Assembly (NCBI RefSeq): GCF_006345805.1
Contig: NW_021833025.1
Coordinates: 62,001 to 126,000 of the forward strand
Direction of reading: 5' to 3'
Source: Octopus sinensis
Lineage: Eukaryota
Length of the DNA: 64,000 bases
In this document: positions 19,764-29,192 of the stretch, in pieces
Layout of the letters: each line of letters begins with the position of its first letter
How positions within the stretch are numbered: the stretch's first letter is position 1
Position numbers and translations under genes: made by a program
Notes under the pieces: model-generated
Database searches by the model: none
What the model was told of the DNA's origin: nothing
Seen by the model: the letters and a program-made list of their open reading frames with translations, nothing else

Positions 19764-20360
19764 TAGGGAAAGTTTTTTCTAGCACTTAAAAAAAATTTTT
19801 AGCGCTAAAAAATCACAAAATCTAGCATTTATAATTAAAAAAATTAGCACTTAAAATAATCAAATCTAGCATTTAAAATTGTAAAATATGACGGCCTAAC
19901 GACATTTAAATTTTATTTATTGTAATATAATATAAAGTAATGCTTGATATTGTTTGGATCGAAGTTCCCATCCTTTTTTAAAATATTTTTCGGCATTTTA
20001 ATTGCTCTTTCAACAAATGCAGAGGATGCCTGACAGCATGAAAGTAAAAAATAATCTTGTTGGCTAATTTTCGGTTCAGTCATTTCAATAATAGATTTAA
20101 ATTCATTTTCCTCTATTCTTTTATTCATATAATTTTTAATATTTGCCTTGTCATCATAAAAATTTAGTCCTTTTATATCATAATATGCCCGATTGATTGA
20201 GTAGTCGAAGCATTTCGAAACTAAGAAGATTTATTATTTGTAAATAATTGGATATGATCTCCGTTAATTTAAGTTTAATATCGGGATCAATTACATGATC
20301 TTTAGCATTTTATACTAAAACTCCATCTGACTGAAATCTGTTAACAATTTCACAAATACA
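19764..20360 (-). mobile_element. hAT (DUF659-type) 3' remnant
   Basis: TAGGG terminus followed by repeated TAGCA(C/T)TTAAAA. C-terminus SCCQASSAFVERAIKM..NFDPNNIKHYFILYYN parallels 15643-15837. Confidence 0.7.
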
Positions 20361-20364
20361 CACG

Positions 20365-20985
20365 CACAGGACGAATGGGACAGGATTCTCTGTGATCAGA
20401 AGTCGAACAATCTCAAGCCTAAGCTTAACCAACATCGCTTGGCTTGTTTATTGGCTGCCTCGCAACCATATTCGGGGGCTTGGTTGACCGCCATCCCTAT
20501 GGGATCGATTGGAACCTTATTGGACGATGATTGCCTGAGGATCGGCGTCTCATTGCGCCTGGGGCTAAACGTATGCCAAGAACACCGGTGCCGCTGTGGA
20601 TCGACTGTTGACCCCTTTGGATTGCACCCATTATCGTGTCAGAGAAGCTCCGGACGCTTTCCCCGACAGGCTGCCCTTAACGACATAATCAAGCGTACTC
20701 TTGAAACTGGCGGATTCCCATCATACTTGGAACCGGTCGCCCTGGTTCGGGAGGATGGTAAACGTCCTGACGGCCTAACGACTTTTCCCTTCGAAAATGG
20801 CAAGTCGCTCATATGGGACGCAACTCGCACGGACACCTTCTCCGCCGGAAACATCTTTACGTCAGCCGCAGAGCCGGGGTCCGCAGCCAACCTTGTGAAA
20901 ACATCAAAAGTCAAGAAATACAGTGTATTATCGCACCGTCATATCTTTACCCCGATCGCAGTGGAGACGTCGGGAGTTCTCGTTA
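20365..20985 (+). mobile_element. CRE-clade retrotransposon fragment (zinc knuckle plus REL)
   Basis: SGAWL..LRLGL..HRCRCG..HPLSC..GKRPDG..WDAT..PIAVETSG. Confidence 0.88.
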
Positions 20986-21108
20986 AATATTAAATAACAG
21001 ATTATTTTGATTTCTCATTTGAGTTAAAATTGAAATAAATGTCAGAAGTATTTTACAAATTATTTTGAAATTCGTGAAATAATATTTCGCTGCTTTAAAC
21101 CAACTTCT

Positions 21109-21566
21109 TAAACCACGCAGACAACCTACTTCACAAATGCGAAAAAAATTGAAAATCCTCCAAACTCTATCCGGCAAATGGAAAAACGGTTCGCACCCGG
21201 TACTGGCGAATATCTACCGCCAGTACTTCGAACGTTTCATCGCCTACGCCTGGGGATCATGGGGTCCGCGGTTATCGTGGTCCAACAGGAGGCGAATCGA
21301 GGAGACCCAACAAAGGGCCCTCAGATTAACCGATCGTTGGTCGCATGATAGCGAACGCCCCGGTCCAGCTTCTCTGGAAGACCTTATCAAGCTGAATCTC
21401 GGTCCGTCAGCAAACGCCCCGTCAAAAACGGCCTGCCGCCCGGTGCGATTTTGTGTGGGCTCGTGGAAAGATCACCGAGCGAAGATGAGGTCTCTGGTCA
21501 AGTGCATCGGGATAACGTGACTTTTGTTTGACTCTCATCGTGGTCTTGGCGGTTAAATAAATAAAA
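21109..21566 (+). mobile_element. 5'-truncated LINE with (TAAA)n tail
   Basis: 13-bp TSD TAAACCAACTTCT at 21096-21108 and 21567-21579. IYRQY..YAWGSW..IEETQQRALR. The 3' UTR motif is shared with 4857-4920. Confidence 0.85.
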
Positions 21567-21697
21567 TAAACCAACTTCTGCATCTGCATAAATTAAGAAA
21601 AAGAATACCTAGTAATTACCACATCAGGTGGGTATTCTACATCCTTGAACAACTTACAACGTTTTCGGTTTTTTACTTTTTCAGCTTTAATGGTTTT

Positions 21698-21772
21698 GTT
21701 TGTCGATGTGGGTCACCTTCTCGTGGTGGCAAATGATAGTTTCTCATGGAATTAACTACCAAAAGACCCACA
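21698..21772 (+). ncRNA. HDV-like self-cleaving ribozyme (Pr77-like 5' hallmark)
   Basis: P1 GTTTGTC/GGCAAAT with G1-U wobble. P2 TGTGGGTC/GACCCACA. P3 ACC/GGT. L3 TTCTCGT. P1.1 TC/GA. P4 TAGTT/AACTA. J4/2 CCAAAA. Confidence 0.85.
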
Positions 21773-24700
21773 ACCCCCCCCCCCTGTCGGATCGGATACC
21801 TTCCGTGACGTCGGTGGCAGCAGAGCAGGCGCGAAGCCGTTGCTCCAAGGACCTCTCTTTTACACTCCCAACTCGCCCTTCTCCTCTCCGGAGACATCGA
21901 ACAAAACCCTGGACCCGCCAGGAAGAACCTACTTCGTATCCTGCAAGTAAACATTAATGGGATCGCCCACAAGACCACTGAACTCTGTTCCTTCATGGAG
22001 AAGTACGACGTGGACATTGCTTTGGTGCAGGAAACGAAGCTCTCGCCCAAAAACCGCCTGCCCGATTTCCCGGGTTACTCATACATCCGGCGAGACAGAC
22101 CGAACTCCGTAAATGGCGGGGGCCTTTTAACCCTTATCAGAAAATCAATCCCTTTCTCTAACTGTACATCACAAGCTTACACACTAATCGATAACGACCC
22201 TGTAATTGAGCTGACGGCTATAACGGTCTCTACAGGGCGCTCAACCAGAAGGCTGATCAACATGTACATCCCTCCGTGTTCATCCTGTCCTCACGGTTGG
22301 ACCCCTTCAATACAAAACCTCCAGTCACTCAGTAATGTCTTTATCTGCGGCGATATGAACGCAAAGAGCCCGATTTGGCTAAAAAATCAATGCCTCAACT
22401 CAAGAGGAACTCTTATACTTGATCAACTTGACGGTCTGGTCATCCTCAACAACTCCTCATCCCATACCAGAACCCCGTCAAGATATGGCGACGCAATCTC
22501 CTCTCCCGACATCTCACTGTGTACTCCTATTCTGGCCTCCGTTACCTCCTGGAAGGTGGTTTATGACCTAACCAGTGACCATAACCCAATCATAATCGAG
22601 AATGCTCTAAAATCTAACATTGACCTACAACGCCGCTGTTACACTAACTACAAAAGAGCTTCCTGGGACGAATACCGCCTTGCCCTAGAAAACTCTCTGA
22701 ACGATTTCAACATCAACAGCTTTCGCTCGACTGATGCAGCAGTCAATCACCTTAATGCTCTCATCATTTCCACCGCCAAAAAATTCATCCCCCAAGGAAA
22801 AATTGAAAAGTTCCGCCCTAATTACAGCAACGAAGTGAAATCCCTCATAAAGACTCGCAACAAGCTGAAACAGACATCAAGGCACTCTGCCGAGTCCTCC
22901 ATTGAATTGGCTAACCTAAACAAACAAATCACCGCTGCCATTAACTGCACGCAGATTCTAAGTGGACCGAATTTATCACCTCAATCGACTACAGATCTAA
23001 CAGCTCCAAAATCTGGAAGACCCTGAAGGACATGAATGATCTGATTTATGAAAAGCCCAAGTCCCATGAATCTGCCACTTCTAACTCAAACATCCCACTG
23101 AATCCGGTTCAGGAGGCAAACTCGCTCATGAACTACTACGCCTCCTTAAGCCACAAAACCTCAAACAAAAACGATCGGAAGGTCGCCAAATCTCGGAGGA
23201 GCTTACCTCGCACGGAATCCTTACCGCCTTTCACTGCAGACGAAGTTTCGCAGTGTATAAAAAACTCGAAGAATTCCCCCGCCACGGGGCCTGACAACAT
23301 TTCTATCCACCACCTTAAAAGACTTGGCCCTAACGCCATCAACGCTATAGTGTCTATTTTCAACAATTCGGTTGTAAAAAACGAAATTCCATCTCTTTGG
23401 AAAAAATCACGTATCATCCCGTTAATCAAACCGAACAAACCGGCTGGCATTCCAAGCTCATACCGCCCAATCTCTCTTTTGTGCACGCTATCTAAAATCC
23501 TCGAAAGACTAATCCTTTCACGAGTCTCGAAGCACTTACCAACATCCCACACCCAACATGGCTTCAAACCACTGCACTCAACAACCACTCACTTAACAAC
23601 GCTTTCCCAGTTCGTCCTGGACGGCTTTAATGAGAAGAGGCCCCCTAAACGAACAGTTCTAGCTTCCATCGACATATCTAAAGCTTTTGACAGCGTCCCC
23701 CGTTGCGGTCTCACCAAGAAAATTCTCACGACCGGCCTAGACTCAAACTACAAATCCTGGCTTGCTAACTTCTTATCGGGCCGCATGGGCTACGTCTCCC
23801 TCATGGACCATTGTTCCAAACAACGCTATCTTCCAAACGGGGTACCGCAGGGCTCCGTGCTGTCTCCGTCCCTGTTCAATCTTTACTTGCATGACTTCCC
23901 GGCAAACGACCCTAACAACTTGACACTATCTTACGCTGACGACATTATTATTGCCTCAAAACACGAAGACTACAAAGCTGCCTCCTTCAACCTTCAGCAA
24001 CAACTCCACTCCGTTGAGAATTGGCTCAGAGAAAACAGGCTCGAGGCCTCGTCCTCCAAGTCCTCGGTCACCCTATTATCTTCCGACAGAAGACAATCAA
24101 ACATACATCCCATCCTATCTCTCTTGGCTCTGTTCTCCCACTATCAAAACACCCCACTGTTCTCGGACTAACCTTCGACCCAACGATGTCCTTCAACAAA
24201 CATGTCTCGAAGATCTCTGGCAAGGCTAACAGGCGTACAAATATCCTGAAAGCAATAAGTGGTCACATCACTGGTGCGCAGAAACCACTTCTCAAACGTG
24301 TGTATAAACAATACATTCGCCCTGTCCTAAGCTACGCGAGTCCGAGTTGGGCTCCCTGTCTATCTATGAGCTCCTCTTTGGCTCTCCAATCAATTCAAAA
24401 CAAAGCCATGCGCATCATATCCGGGTGCCTGAAATCAACACCCATCGACCATCTGCACTGTGAAACCAACCTCCTCCCGATAGAGGAACATCTAAACATG
24501 AGAGGAGCACAATTCCTATTCGCTTCGCGAAAATTCTACCACCCTTGCACTGCCCTAAACACGCTAAATGACAACGGCCGTGCTTTGAAGAACACGCCTG
24601 CCAAACTATACTCCCGGGTACTTGCCAAAATCAATGGCCTAAACCAATGTTCACAGCCAATGAAAAAAATCCACGACTTCATTTCAACGTCGTCCATTCT

Positions 24701-25028
24701 AAAGCTGAAGCCTAACTCTGTCCTCAACAAACTCCCTCCGGAAGTTCACCCCTCCGAATTGCTTCTGGAGCGTTCCGCTCAGATCAACCTTGCTCGTTTC
24801 CGCTCGGGCCACCACCACTCACTAAACTCCTACGCTCACTCATTGAACGCCGTGATCTCCCCGGTATGCAACCTCTGCTGTGCCGAAGATCACTCAACTG
24901 ACCACCTTTTCCGCTGCCCTGTTCTCCTCCCTGTCCGCAGGAAATTTGCTGTCCACTCCCCCGAGGTCCTTTGGGAGCAACCCGCGAAGGCGCTGTTGTT
25001 TCTGCTAGCCGCCGGTCTCATACCTTAA
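21746..25028 (+). pseudogene. Vingi polyprotein: leader-2A-APE-RT-CCHC, with one in-frame TGA (21806) and two frameshifts (~22950, ~24120)
   Basis: The ATG at 21746 is in frame with LALLLSGDIEQNPGP (ending 21916) and with ORF 21995-23026. It continues in ORFs 23032-24171 and 24021-25028. Confidence 0.85.
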
Positions 25029-25079
25029 TGTGAGACCGGGGTTATGCAACAACAACAATGCTCGCAATCGAACCATCTA

Positions 25080-26611
25080 CAGTCTGTACCAAAACATTAT
25101 AATATTGACAAATTTATCAATAAATCATTTGTATCTCTACTTATATCAATTTTTAAGTGTTAATTTTTAGCATGTAATTTGTAAATTGACTTATCTAACT
25201 ATTCTTAAATAAATTAATTCTTAAAAATATATTACATGCTAAAAATATATTGTCATGTACCAAAACATTATAATAATTTTTGTCATGTAACAAAAGATTA
25301 TAATATTTTCTAGTATTTGATGTTTTTCCCTCGAGATTTTAGTACAGCATCTACTCTTTTTGGCATTGATTCAATTAAAACTTTTATTTCTTCAATTTTA
25401 ATTTCATTCCATCTGATTTTCAGTTCATTTTTCAGATCCTCTATCGTTTTTATTCCACGAGCCATAACTTTTCGTTTCATTATTCTCCAAAGATTTTCGA
25501 TTGGATTGAGATCAGGCGAATTAGGAGGCTATTTCATAAGATTAATTTTTTGGTTTTGAATCCACTCAATCGTATCTTTTGCAGTGTGTGCAGGAGCATT
25601 GTCCTGATGAAAAATGTAATTACATCCATCATATAACTTTTGACCAGTTGAAATTAAATTTTTTCTAATATTTCTCTGTATACTAATCCATTTACAGTTG
25701 AATCAATAATTGAAAGCGGGCTCAACCCATTAAAACTCATCGCTCCCCACACCATAGCTCCTTTTCTGTAATGAAGCTTTTGATTTATGCATGAAGGATG
25801 AATTGTTTCATTTCTTTTACGCCAAACATAGCACCTTTTTCACCAATTGACAGCAGAAACTTAGATTCGTCAGAAAAAATAACTTTGGACCACTGTTCTA
25901 TAGTCCAGTTTATTTTCCCTTTAGCCCATGCTAATCTTTGCTTCTGTTGTTTTAATGTTAGGAAGGGCTTGCAAACAGGGGTTCTGGAAAAAAATCCCAA
26001 TTGGTTTAGACGTCTGCTTATTGTCATTCGGCTCAAATTAATTCCGTGAGGAATAAGTTTTTCGGAAATTTCCTTAATAGAGATGAATCTATTTTCCATC
26101 AAAACTCTTTGAATAACTCTTTCTTCTCGTGAAGACGTTAATTTCGGCCTTCCCTTTCCGACACGATTGTTTTTCTCGTTATTCTGCTTTCGCAACACGT
26201 TGGAAACTGATCCTTGTGAGCAATTTGTGATTTCCGCGATTTTGTTTTGACTAAGTCCAAAGGTATGGAGATTTAAAATAATTTTTTTGGTATCAAATGA
26301 CAAGTCGCTTTTTCGTTCCATGTAAATTAAATAATAACGTGTTAAATTTAAAATAAATTTGTTTTTGTATGAAAAATATAAAAATTATTATAATGTTATG
26401 GTACATGACAAAAATTATTATAATGTTATGGTACATGACAATTTGTATCACCAAACCAGTGATCTCGTAAAATCAAATAATTTTTTAAATAGTTAAAGAA
26501 AGTAAATTTGAATTTGGATGTAAAAAATTAAGTCATAAAAATGGATATTTGTGAAAATAGAGTTATATTTTAACTAAATTTACGAGTATTATAATGTTTT
26601 GGTACAGACTG
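25080..26611 (-). mobile_element. Tc1 (DD34E-type) element, IR/DR ends, frameshifted transposase 25310-26321
   Basis: TA TSDs. Outer 25-bp TIR CAGTCTGTACCAAAACATTATAATA, repeated twice more internally at each end. GRP, VIFSDESKF, FHQDNAPAH, SPDLNPIENLW. Confidence 0.93.
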
Positions 26612-27048: not shown

Positions 27049-29192
27049 ATGCCACCATCCTTAATTTTGGGTATGTATTATTTATATAATTCTTAATCTG
27101 TAGATAAAACATTTCCACCATTGCCTGAAACAGCTCGAGCTACACCAATCGTGTTAGGCAGCAATCCAAATTCTCCCTTCTTTTTGTATTGTAACGATAA
27201 GTATGTCATCATGCGGAACATCTTGGTATTAATATTCTGTTGGATTCACATTTTAGTATCCGGAAGTGTGCAGAATTTATCCAGGTCACCTCAGTAATGT
27301 ACACTGCGCTCGCTTCTCGCCTTCGGGGAATTACATAGCCAGTGGAGGTTTTTTTTATATTGTCCATTAAACATTTAAGATGCTCAAGGAAAGGTCCATA
27401 TTTGGGCTCCTAATCCGGAAGAAATAATAAAGAAGTATGACCATCAACTTTTGTCAGGACCTGTTAAGGATGTGGCTTGGTCCCCTGATAACTCCAAATT
27501 AGTCGCTGTTGGAGGCGCTGGTTCAACGTATTTTCTTTTTAACTTAAAAACAGTTTTGCACGTTTCTTTCGATGGGACAGCTCGAATAAAATAAGCGATG
27601 TCAGCAGGAGCTCAAAATCTATAAATTCTGTTGATATAGCTCTCAATATGCCTCTACGCTGCTGTATGGCTTCCGAGGATCAGAGAGCCCATTTTTTTAC
27701 AGGAACTAAGTTGGAAAAGTACACCGATATCAGAGTTTGTCATTTTTCCATTTTAAGGACAATACCAGTTTTGTCCAATGTTCTCGGTTTACCCCCGACG
27801 GTAATGTTTTTATCACGGGAGGTTCTGATTGCAAGATTTGTATATACGGTGGAACAGAGGGAAATCTCCTCCGAACGGTTAATCCTTCTCATAAGGGTGG
27901 AGTCTACGCAGTCGCCCCATCCCCAGACTCAAGACAATTCTTGACTGCCTCTGGCGACAAAACTGCAGCGATTTATGACATTGAGACAGGTCAACAAGTC
28001 CAGTCCGTGTATTAGTCAACAAAGTTTCAGGTTATACAAAATGGGGTCAACTCTCGACGACATGCAGGTGGGATGTCTGTGGGAAGGAAATAATTTAATA
28101 ACTGTCTCTCTTTCTGGCTATATCAACTACCTCGATATTAATGACACTGCCAAGCCGGCCAGAATAGTACAGGTTCATTACTCTTAGAAGTGATTGTTCA
28201 GGGACATAAAAGGGCGTATACTTCTTCGTTCTTCGACAACGATTCTATTTTCCTTGGAAGTTATGACGGAATAATATGTGAGCTGATCTATGATGATTAT
28301 TCCAGCAAAGTACGACATTTCAAGTTCTCAGACGACTGTTGTTTCTGGGAACAAGGAAGTCAATGTTCATAATATTGTGCCACAAACTCCTGATTCTGTT
28401 CTATCTATGTCTGTCAATAATTCTGTCCGTGAATTCGACAGGAATACTCTTGAATGGAGGTTATTCTCTATTTTTATTCTCAAGTGATTGGAATATTTTT
28501 TTGCCTTCCCAACCATTGTCAGCTTCGTCTGATCAAGAAGATATTGTTATTGGATGCACTAATAATGTCCTATATTTGGGGAAAATTATTATTAGATTGT
28601 ATTTATGAGATCAAAGCAAGTAGTCGGCACGTTCGATGTGAAGGAACCGGTCAAATCTTGTGCGATATCAAAGAAAGCGGGGCATATCGTGTGTTCGCAT
28701 GAGGTTTTGTGGTTTTGTATCAAATTTGTCAGAATACTTCAGTTTATGATATTCCTAGTGATGGGAAACTTATTTTGATAAAGACACTACCTGATCTGGC
28801 TACTGTTCTTAAGTACTCTCCTGATGAGAACTTTATCGCGGCTGTAATATTTACTGAAGTCGTTGTAATGAAGGTCCCAGAATACGAGGTATGGTTTGGC
28901 ATATTTTTATTTTAGAATGTCGGTCGTGGTTATTTTGGGAACTCTTCTTCGATTGTGAGCATTTCATGGTCTCCAGACTCCAAAAGATTTATGACAGCGT
29001 CCATTGATTCCTCCATTTTGATTTGGGAGATTGGGAAGAATCGAGCTCTTATTTGTCTAGAGAGTATGTTTTTGTGTCATTTTAATAGGAGCCCACAATG
29101 GATTGCCATTAATTTCTTCATTCTTTATATCTGAAGAAAAAGTAGCATCGCTGGGCTCTGACTCCTGTCTGAGCATTTGGTCTATACAATAG
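27049..29192 (+). CDS. WDR1: Actin-interacting protein 1 (WD-repeat), ~14 exons
   Basis: Spliced product ..FPPLPETARATPIVLG..FLYCN..ARFSPSGNYIASGDAQGKVHIW..SGPVKDVAWSPD..HKGGVYAVAPSPDSRQFLTASGDKT..DMQVGCLWEG..VSLSGYINYLD..SWSPDS..DSCLSIWSI*. About 13 introns of 23-33 nt. Confidence 0.93.

Follow-up and report, generated by a model that had tools for sequence, protein, structure and literature searches.

HDV-like ribozymes are reported from the 5′ termini of LINEs that include R2, RTE and Baggins (Ruminski et al. 2011; Eickbush & Eickbush 2010). Their hallmarks are a G·U wobble closing P1 and a cytosine at the start of J4/2. They cleave where P1 begins, at its first nucleotide, and in a LINE this is also the base with which the element starts. 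To our knowledge, no 2A peptide has been reported for LINEs of the R2, RTE or Baggins type. The HDV-like ribozyme is a nested double pseudoknot with P1, P1.1, P2, P3 and P4 (PMC4908430). Excerpts of PMC6765202 and PMC4908430 describe 5′ processing of the R2, RTE and Baggins co-transcript at the first P1 base and record that a role of LINE HDV-like ribozymes in translation initiation has been proposed. The start codon of R2 is still called uncertain (PMC12222951).

The closest described systems are the L1Tc/ingi elements of trypanosomatids, in which an HDV-like ribozyme in the first ~75 nt cuts at nt +1 and an in-frame 2A peptide precedes APE and RT within one ORF (PMC3185411 and PMC5814959, in excerpt). 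The L1Tc 2A has a measured activity of 0.76 (PMC12338488, supplementary file 2). Single-ORF LINEs with an N-terminal 2A directly upstream of APE were described in 2013 from hosts that include molluscs, echinoderms and cephalochordates; that paper contains no mention of ribozymes and leaves initiation open (PMC3708506). Our literature search, which most subscription journals lay outside, found no report that joins a 5′ HDV-like ribozyme and an N-terminal 2A outside L1Tc.

Here, we describe a LINE copy in a 64,000-nt stretch of Octopus sinensis DNA (contig NW_021833025.1, positions 62,001 to 126,000), referred to as the window. Its family, called family A, resembles L1Tc/ingi in its predicted 5′ ribozyme, in its single ORF, where an in-frame 2A precedes APE and RT, and in its 2A core, LLLSGDIEQNPGP, which is identical. 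It differs in its host, which is an animal; in its 1098-aa protein, which is without a detected RNase H domain; in its 3′ end, a hairpin and (AAC)n where L1Tc/ingi have poly(A); and in the AUGs that lie inside its ribozyme, whereas Pr77 as printed in the excerpted text of PMC1874656 has none. As in the R2, RTE and Baggins type, the predicted cut falls at the first P1 base. Family A shares the single ORF and the N-terminal 2A directly upstream of APE with the elements of PMC3708506, but its 2A follows a leader that would be encoded by the ribozyme.

A single-ORF LINE copy in the window

The copy at 21698-25058 on the plus strand is a single-ORF non-LTR retrotransposon (LINE) with APE and RT domains (Pfam). 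It belongs to the young subfamily of family A and carries two frameshifts and two leader indels. Its main parts are as follows.

21698..25058, plus strand: element copy, with Pfam APE and RVT_1 and with sequence common to the copies from 21698 on
21941..22582, plus strand: APE endonuclease domain (Pfam PF03372, E = 1.3e-11)
23437..24075, plus strand: reverse transcriptase domain (Pfam PF00078, E = 7.1e-36), in a second frame of the broken window copy
25012..25058, plus strand: 3′ end, the same in the window copy, L061 and L064, with flanks that differ past the tail

The target site duplication (TSD) of copy L061, GCAATGGTTT, fixes the first base of the element at 21698. Public contigs from four runs, three studies and two organism labels were also compared, and their flanks diverge upstream of 21698 in X1 and X4 and upstream of 21696 in X3. 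At the other end, the ORF stop TAA (25026-28) lies in the loop of a hairpin, CCGGTCTCA/TGAGACCGG (25012-20/25031-39), and the (AAC)n tail follows at 25047-58. The features of an APE-type non-LTR element were all present: one ORF holds both APE and RT, there is a TSD, the 3′ tail is defined, and some copies are 5′-truncated.

An earlier note on this DNA had counted two frameshifts in the copy, and the ORF map (21809-23026, 22945-24171 and 24018-25028) agrees. Because of these two frameshifts, which come on top of the leader indels, the window copy cannot make the protein. An unbroken frame of 1098 codons was found in the 5′-truncated copy L064, where it runs from the ATG at 21733 (ATG1 below) through 2A and APE to RT. 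Pfam detected only RVT_1 and two APE models in the 1098-aa protein (P0001), and no RNase H domain was found downstream of RT.

A predicted 5′-terminal HDV-like ribozyme

The first 74 nt of the element could be assigned to an HDV-like fold. The parts, all on the plus strand, are given below.

21698..21771: HDV-like ribozyme fold (double pseudoknot), with covariation within family A and across five families
21698-704/21728-734: P1, first pair G21698·U21734
21705-07: J1/2, by fold assignment
21708-14/21765-71: P2, by fold assignment
21715-17/21725-27: P3, by fold assignment
21718-24: L3, which reads TTCTCGT
G21735-C21720 and A21736-U21719: P1.1, by fold assignment
21737-41/21754-58: P4, by fold assignment
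21742-53: L4, the loop of P4, which holds the ATG at 21746
21759-64: J4/2, CCAAAA, with C21759 as the candidate catalytic C

Among 24 distinct family A sequences, 90.1% of the cells were paired, compared to 31-52% in slid controls, and the ribozyme helices were 85-94% paired. Five pairs changed on both sides; one P1 pair is UA in 12 of the sequences and CG in seven. Further families were sought by a protein query of the same genome. Across five families, P2 and P3 together were 96.3% paired with 5/9 pairs changed on both sides, which was reached by none of 500 shuffles. In families A, B, C and D, P4 also forms a stem, although its sequence is unrelated from family to family. Compensatory changes were seen in P1, P2 and P3. 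By these comparisons, 21698-21771 is conserved across copies and families, beyond chance, as an HDV-like fold. The fit varies between families: family B has an A·A mismatch in P3, and in family C, P1 is paired at only 5/7 positions. Folding energies were unexceptional, at z = -1.39 for the ribozyme and z = -0.57 for the first 150 nt, both scored on nested pairs with the pseudoknots outside the scoring. A loose HDV-motif finder returned mostly spurious AT-rich matches and missed family C, and it was replaced by explicit helices for each family.

Another possible explanation is that the conserved 5′ structure does not cleave itself and that an internal promoter or a protein-binding RNA fits the HDV layout by chance. 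No Rfam ribozyme family was matched in 20900-22300 at E <= 10, where the only matches were chance-level ones to lncRNA and miRNA models; the same 77 nt of L1Tc also act as a promoter (excerpted text of PMC3383444); and family D has no C in J4/2. We nevertheless consider this explanation improbable. Covariation supports both helices of the pseudoknot. The L3 sequence is TTCTCGT, and in families A and B a C precedes an A-rich J4/2. P1 opens with a G·U pair in 15/24 sequences and with A-U in 4/24, and the first P1 base is also the first base of the element, G21698, on which the copies, the TSD and the contig flanks agree, although this agreement is one of position only.

A scan of metagenomes with an 18-nt core pattern gave at least 119 loci, and among the matches listed none had a 2A downstream. 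Three of the listed matches had a P2 complement, which is attributed to chance, and lay in GC-rich sequence.

A conserved 2A peptide upstream of APE

21854..21916, plus strand: 2A coding stretch ending in SLLHSQLALLLSGDIEQNPG/P, with the predicted skip between 21913 and 21914

GDIEQNPGP is encoded at 21890-21916, directly upstream of APE. The placing of a 2A ahead of APE, which had been noted for this one copy, holds for the family: most copies of the young and the older subfamily retain D(V/I)ExNPGP, and L064, the unbroken copy, has it in frame. A homologue search returned metagenome proteins. The homologues P0002 and P0004 also have an N-terminal 2A. Judged from sequence, the motif is conserved across copies and families beyond chance.

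The last 13 residues of the window 2A are identical to the L1Tc 2A, and the context further upstream differs from that of L1Tc; 2A needs an appropriate upstream context (Odon et al.). The 2A of the older subfamily resembles that of STR-51_SP, one of the elements of PMC3708506, which was scored active (PMC12338488 supplement). For family C, a 14-residue version scored only 0.1 in the published screen, and Trypanosoma entries in the supplement of PMC12338488 match the 16-residue 2A exactly. The family C 2A is also found at residues 43-58 of predicted Octopus vulgaris proteins, which are gene predictions only.

The stop codon is outside the family reading frame

The earlier note read the window copy as a recoding cassette, in which translation would start at the AUG in loop L4, pass a UGA-C stop by readthrough aided by the hairpin at 21823-21845, and shed the leader by 2A. 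Each literal feature is there: a frame from 21746, TGA-C at 21806-21809, the hairpin, and the 2A before APE. The translation of 21746-21961 reads MELTTKRPTTPPPCRIGYLP, the stop, and then RRWQQSRREAVAPRTSLLHSQLALLLSGDIEQNPGPARKNLLRILQVNING. As in type II readthrough (UGA-C plus a 3′ structure), a hairpin stands 14 nt past the UGA-C, in the window copy only. The following features bear on this model.

21774..21784, plus strand: C-tract, 11 C in the window copy and thus 2 nt longer than the 9-nt family state, CCTCCCCCC
21806..21808, plus strand: TGA triplet, which in the family frame spans the codons CGT GAC (R-D), with C21809 next
21807..21855, plus strand: block of ~50 nt, invariant between the subfamilies, which contains the hairpin at 21823-21845
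21845..21846, plus strand: CC where the family has CCC, a 1-nt deletion private to the window copy

Both landmarks are present in 24 copies. In 21 of these, the triplet at 21806 stands at offset 1 from the 2A/APE frame; it is in the 2A frame only in the window copy and in the decayed copies L014 and L023. The unbroken frame of L064 reads ...TFRDVGG... across this place, and L061 reads LSMWVTFSWWQMIVSHG...GDIEQNPGP without a stop. Contigs of all four public runs have C>T at 21776, lack 2 nt at 21777, and carry an inserted C behind 21844, which restores the family CCC; the triplet is out of the 2A frame in all four. The TGA lies inside the 2A frame of the window copy because of two private indels, one in the C-tract and one in the CC, and a frame that joins the L4 AUG, the TGA and the 2A was found only there. 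Programmed readthrough was rejected, since the stop is outside the family reading frame and the defining feature of readthrough is thus absent. The C-tract was considered as a programmed frameshift site and also rejected: its length is 7, 9 or 11 among young copies, as in a homopolymer prone to mutation, and most copies have a tract with which no shift is needed.

In favour of the recoding model, the TGA is common to 8/8 young copies that hold that place, but as a triplet and not as a codon of the family frame. Older copies mostly have CGA or CAA there, and the older subfamily codons at the site, CGC GAC, are synonymous with the family CGT GAC. The null hypothesis of the earlier note, decay from CGA to TGA, was right in that the cassette is an artefact of a broken copy, but the cause is the two indels and not that substitution. 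The hairpin (GAGCA-GGC-gcgaa-GCC-gt-TGCTC) appears in the minimum-energy fold and is located in the invariant block, which has no fixed subfamily differences compared to 24 substitutions in the other 142 nt; no other 50-nt stretch of the element is as conserved (0.92). Its folding energy is ordinary, however (z = -0.53; 49/200 shuffles fold equally well), and that of the leader is unexceptional as well (z = +0.66). With the stop out of frame in nearly all copies, the L4 AUG missing from older lineages and two further frameshifts in the window copy, we consider readthrough from the L4 AUG extremely improbable. Instead, it is very probable that the window holds a decayed LINE copy whose AUG(L4)-UGA-2A frame was made by two private indels, with no readthrough, and that the family itself carries a ribozyme-leader-2A module.

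AUG codons inside the ribozyme

Three AUGs within the predicted ribozyme were considered as starts of the ORF.

21706..21708, plus strand: ATG0, at the J1/2-P2 junction (element nt 9-11), which opens the family frame MWVTFSWWQM...
21733..21735, plus strand: ATG1, which covers the last bases of P1 on its 3′ strand plus the first P1.1 base, in the frame of ATG0; an alternative initiator
21746..21748, plus strand: ATG2, in loop L4, specific to the young subfamily (8/24 copies)

The position of ATG2 in the L4 loop, as had been proposed, was confirmed by the fold, in which L4 is 21742-21753. Its role as the initiator was not: it is in the 2A frame only where the C-tract length has changed (the window copy, L004 and L005). 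In the older subfamily, P4 is 9 nt shorter and ATG2 is absent, and in the older long-P4 lineages L4 reads TCGTCGG, again without ATG2. ATG2 was therefore rejected as the initiator of the family. The general idea of an ORF that starts inside the ribozyme survived, with the start moved to a likely 21706 or 21733.

In copy L003/L061, the frame from ATG0 reaches through the 2A without a stop. The window copy has ATG0 out of frame, and several older family A copies are without it. ATG1 is present in 21/24 copies with a ribozyme core and heads the unbroken frame of L064. Among the 16 family A copies with both a ribozyme core and a 2A, ATG0 was in frame and stop-free in one, ATG1 in four and ATG2 in two. 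The conservation of ATG0 and ATG1 is not independent evidence of their use because the fold also constrains those bases. In families B and C, an in-frame, stop-free ATG lies at element nt 8-10, likewise at the J1/2-P2 junction, and opens MWFTFS..., followed by 2A and APE. It was found in 5/5 family B copies with different flanks, where open frames reach 1118 aa, and in 3/3 family C copies, two of them independent. From the sequence comparison, ATG0 at 21706 is likely the initiator of family A.

Alternatively, the ribozyme and the 2A could be real and initiation could occur downstream of the ribozyme, by an IRES-like or non-AUG mechanism, so that the open frame across the ribozyme is incidental. 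The leader would be compatible with this, as fixed leader substitutions between the subfamilies fall at codon positions in the ratio 8:7:9; there is no third-position excess and thus no visible amino-acid selection on the leader peptide. The fold by itself constrains the bases of ATG0 and ATG1, several older copies are without ATG0, and J1/2 carries GTG in family D. Reviews suggest an IRES-like action of HDV-like ribozymes for R2 and L1Tc (PMC6765202, in excerpt), and the Pr77 oligonucleotide of L1Tc carries no ATG in the excerpted text of PMC1874656. On the other hand, the leaders of families A, B and C cannot be aligned to one another, and all three keep the J1/2 ATG in frame and stop-free to the 2A. 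Between ATG1 and the 2A, the subfamilies differ by two indels, one of 9 nt (inside P4) and one of 3 nt, and both preserve the frame. The family C 2A at residues 43-58 of the predicted Octopus vulgaris proteins also fits a start at the J1/2 ATG. Downstream initiation seems rather unlikely to us, and a start inside the ribozyme, at ATG0 or ATG1, is preferred.

A ribozyme-leader-2A module

For family A, the following course can be suggested. The first 74 nt would fold as an HDV-like ribozyme and, if the fold is active, self-cleavage would sever the co-transcript right where the element begins, at its first base. The ORF likely begins inside the ribozyme, at AUG 21706, which is 9 nt from the cut end, or at the in-frame AUG 21733, and initiation there would be cap-independent. 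From there, the frame would cover what remains of the ribozyme and then a short leader. The 2A (LLLSGDIEQNPG/P) is predicted to release a ribozyme-encoded leader of 60-69 residues by skipping, and the APE-RT protein would then start with proline.

A broader proposal, which we regard as possible rather than probable, is that a group of animal LINEs, with at least three families in this genome, encodes its initiator AUG inside the catalytic core of a 5′-terminal HDV-like ribozyme (J1/2-P2), only 7-8 nt from the self-cleaved 5′-OH. Three roles would then fall to the ribozyme at once: it would direct processing, replace the cap or serve as a landing pad for ribosomes, and code for protein. The 2A would discard the peptide that the ribozyme encodes. 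That trypanosome L1Tc/ingi elements have this module too, with 2A cores that are identical, could mean that it was inherited from an ancient common source or that it was transferred horizontally.

The readthrough artefact warns against inferring recoding when only one decayed copy of a repeat is in view: type II readthrough calls for a stop in the reading frame, and the stop here is outside that of family A. For animal LINEs, the literatures on 5′ HDV-like ribozymes and on N-terminal 2A peptides have been kept apart, and the two are joined here in one module that, within the literature searched, was previously documented only for trypanosome L1Tc. With an AUG inside a double pseudoknot, 8-9 nt from the 5′ end, the module is a defined test case for the translation of an uncapped, ribozyme-capped RNA. 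It also suggests a reason for the N-terminal 2A of single-ORF LINEs, which was left open by Odon et al.: the 2A may serve to detach a leader that is dictated by the ribozyme sequence.

Boundaries of the LINE

The frames downstream of the leader carry APE (PF03372, PF14529) and RT (PF00078) domains, as found by Pfam, and belong to a single-ORF LINE that we call family A. The coding part is spread over three frames (21809-23026, 22945-24171, and 24018-25028) and, therefore, the window copy has two frameshifts. In L064, a 5'-truncated copy, APE and RT lie in one uninterrupted 1098-codon frame, in which Pfam found no RNase H domain.

Copies were searched for across the 2.7-Gb genome with two queries, 21560-22060 (43 matches) and 21697-21880 (40 matches). 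With the first query, the matches reaching the 5' end all start at about one base, and the sequence shared among copies begins at GTTTGTCG. The genomic copy L061 has a 10-bp target-site duplication, GCAATGGTTT, immediately before the first G and again after the 3' tail. Contigs from public runs diverge in their flanks before 21698 (X1, X4) or 21696 (X3). Together with the 3' hairpin and tail, these findings bound the element at 21698-25058. Copies comprise a young subfamily (97-100% identity, 8-9 copies with a 5' end), which includes the window copy, and older lineages (72-84% identity). In one young copy (L024; G000:C10278, around 60215), the 5' end abuts the inverted 3' end, hairpin and tail included, of another family A copy.

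Features of the LINE and its surroundings in the window
20331-20993, +, open frame of 220 codons, Cys/His-rich in one stretch, no Pfam match; perhaps the tail end of a different retroelement
21567-21695, different repeat adjoining the element's 5' end, at least 7 copies elsewhere in the genome at 90-91% identity; might be a source of read-in transcription for the LINE
21706, +, ATG0, element nt 9, where J1/2 meets P2, in the L061 open frame
21733, +, ATG1, at the P1 end/P1.1 start, in the L061 open frame
25012-20/25031-39, +, 3' end hairpin with the ORF's TAA inside the loop
Reaching 25058, +, (AAC)n 3' tail directly after the hairpin
25310-26384, -, Tc1/mariner-type transposase remnant just beyond the LINE's 3' end, whose HTH_Tnp_Tc3_2 and DDE_3 matches fall in different frames
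27379-28600, +, WD40 repeats in exon-like open frames; probably part of a host gene

An HDV-like fold shared by five families

The HDV layout was fitted by eye to the first 74 nt of the element. PMC4908430 defines this layout as a nested double pseudoknot that is cut at the first nucleotide of P1.

Parts of the family A fold
P1, GTTTGTC / GGCAAAT, first pair G·U
J1/2, GAT
P2, GTGGGTC / GACCCAC
P3, ACC / GGT
L3, TTCTCGT
P1.1, GA paired with UC of L3
P4, TAGTT / AACTA
J4/2, CCAAAA

An Rfam scan gave no match for the ribozyme fold. Among 26 copies (24 distinct), 90.1% of cells were paired, compared to 31-52% with partners slid. Both partners have changed in five pairs, among them a P1 pair that is UA in 12 and CG in 7. 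Since the fold had been derived from family A sequences themselves, independent families were sought by using the 2A-APE start as a protein query (850 candidates, 150 matches scored), and the HDV-like layout was found at the 5' ends of further LINEs.

Fold elements in related families of the same genome
Family B (L093-L097), P1 GATCGTC / GACGATT, P2 TGGTTC / GAACCA, P4 7 bp, 49% amino acid identity
Family C (L103/L105/L112), P1 paired at 5 of 7 positions, P2 TGGTTC / GAACCA, P4 5 bp
Family D (L106/L113), P2 TGATTC / GAATCA, P4 6 bp, J4/2 without C
Family E (L110, 5'-truncated), P2 CGGTTC / GAACCG

The L3 of family B is identical to that of family A, and its P4 sequence is unrelated. When nine sequences covering the five families were aligned, pairing in P2 and P3 came to 96.3%, with both sides changed in 5 of 9 pairs; none of 500 shuffles reached this pairing and slid controls gave 31-52%. 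As P2 encloses P1, P3, and P4, its pairing across families supports the pseudoknot.

In this genome, the 5' order HDV-like fold, leader, 2A, APE recurs in at least four more LINE families. The same layout is also seen at G000:C9496:10233-10598, on the window's contig beyond the window itself.

The 2A peptide

The 2A is retained in most copies, as GDIEQNPGP in the young subfamily and GDIEPNPGP in the older one. The last 13 residues of the window 2A are those of the L1Tc 2A, which is listed with an activity of 0.76, and the older version resembles STR-51_SP, which is listed as active (PMC12338488, supplementary file 2). In predicted Octopus vulgaris proteins, the 16-residue 2A of family C, RLLLLTSGDVEQNPGP, is listed at residues 43-58 (PMC12338488, supplementary file 3), a position consistent with a start at the J1/2 ATG. 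The same 16 residues are listed for Trypanosoma proteins, and a 14-residue version scored 0.1 (same file). This identity across kingdoms, like that of the window's 13-residue core with L1Tc, is striking and points to shared ancestry, horizontal transfer, or strong convergence. In the distant homologous proteins P0002 (40% identity) and P0004 (31%), PHD-like fingers come after an N-terminal 2A.

The TGA in the leader

The earlier note proposed that a UGA-C with a downstream hairpin limits output by readthrough. Its literal sequence was correct: 21746-21961 translates as MELTTKRPTTPPPCRIGYLP*RRWQQSRREAVAPRTSLLHSQLALLLSGDIEQNPGPARKNLLRILQVNING, a TGA at 21806-08 is followed by C, and the hairpin GAGCA-GGC-gcgaa-GCC-gt-TGCTC lies at 21823-45. 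Each copy was then anchored on its 2A codons and the frame was scored for the triplet preceding CGTCGG. The triplet is at offset 1, and so forms no codon, in 21 of the 24 copies holding both landmarks. Only the window copy and two decayed older copies (L014, L023) place it in the 2A frame.

The family frame across the site is TTC CGT GAC GTC (F-R-D-V), and the older subfamily has CGC GAC (synonymous) or CGC AAC. By this comparison, the T of the triplet is a synonymous change of the whole young subfamily and no stop. The window copy alone lacks one C (CC at 21845-46 versus CCC in all others), and its C-tract at 21774-84 has 11 C, where 4 of 8 young copies have CCTCCCCCC (9 nt) and the remaining ones 7, 9, or 11 C. 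The combined +2 and -1 changes put the L4 AUG of the window copy in the 2A frame overall; the stretch between them, where the TGA sits, is in the wrong frame. As an independent check, contigs were compared from four public runs, which stem from three studies and carry two organism labels; all four have C>T at 21776, two letters absent at 21777, and an extra C behind 21844. These data refute programmed readthrough: the in-frame stop is an artefact of the window copy, and the stacked cassette is not a real feature. Its hairpin folds no better than shuffles (z = -0.53, 49 of 200 as good).

The C-tract after the ribozyme differs in length (7, 9, 11 nt) among near-identical copies. Being a mutable homopolymer, it switches the frame from one upstream ATG to another.

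The block 21807-21855 has 0 fixed differences between subfamilies versus 24 in the leader's other 142 nt. No other 50-nt window of the element is more conserved, and the APE active-site segment equals it. The hairpin lies inside the block, as does a second occurrence of GGTGGCA from the ribozyme's P3'/P1' strand. The block may act as a ribozyme switch, RNA binding site, or promoter, or may encode a constrained peptide.

The site of translation initiation

The earlier note also placed the start at the AUG in L4 (ATG2, 21746). This is not the family start: it occurs in 8 of 24 copies with a ribozyme core, all of the young subfamily. The P4 of the older subfamily is 9 nt shorter (TAGT-TTTAT-ACTA), and older long-P4 lineages have the loop sequence TCGTCGGATT.

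L061, which has the family state, is open from the flank across the ribozyme (LSMWVTFSWWQMIVSHGINYQKTHNLPPVGSDTFRDVGG...GDIEQNPGP). In family B, the ATG at element nt 8-10 is in frame and stop-free to the 2A in 5/5 copies with different flanks (MWFTFSWRRLDADF...LLLIRCGDVEQNPGP), with open frames of up to 1118 aa. Family C has an equivalent ATG in 3/3 copies, two of them independent (MWFTFSGGAGYS... up to its 2A). From this ATG, both families begin MWFTFS. The A, B, and C leaders cannot be aligned past the ribozyme-encoded residues, though the frame is kept in all three, and, from ATG1 to the 2A, indels separating the family A subfamilies are limited to one of 9 nt and one of 3 nt. Against this, starts are rarely intact in decayed family A copies (ATG0 in 1/16, ATG1 in 4/16, ATG2 in 2/16), fixed leader substitutions between subfamilies show no third-position excess (8:7:9), and family D has GTG at J1/2, with an ATG at element nt 1-3. 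Weighing these, we lean slightly toward initiation inside the ribozyme core, with ATG0 and ATG1 as candidate starts.

Relation to known elements

In L1Tc of Trypanosoma cruzi, the first 77 nt hold an HDV-like ribozyme that cuts at +1, and a 2A lies downstream in frame with APE-RT (PMC3185411, PMC5814959, PMC1874656). N-terminal 2A peptides in animal LINEs were reported without any mention of ribozymes (Odon et al. 2013; PMC3708506). HDV-like ribozymes at the 5' ends of R2, RTE, and Baggins are described in reviews, with an IRES-like role proposed for them (PMC6765202), and the R2 start codon is still termed uncertain (PMC12222951). Beyond the L1Tc papers, the combination of ribozyme and 2A was not found in the literature searched, mostly openly readable journals.

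At the level of sequence, the ribozyme-leader-2A module is real and conserved. We infer a mechanism in which the HDV-like fold would self-cleave the element RNA, translation would initiate inside the ribozyme, and the 2A would release the leader. The octopus elements share the ribozyme-2A-APE arrangement of L1Tc and differ in being animal LINEs, whose start codon likely lies within the ribozyme.
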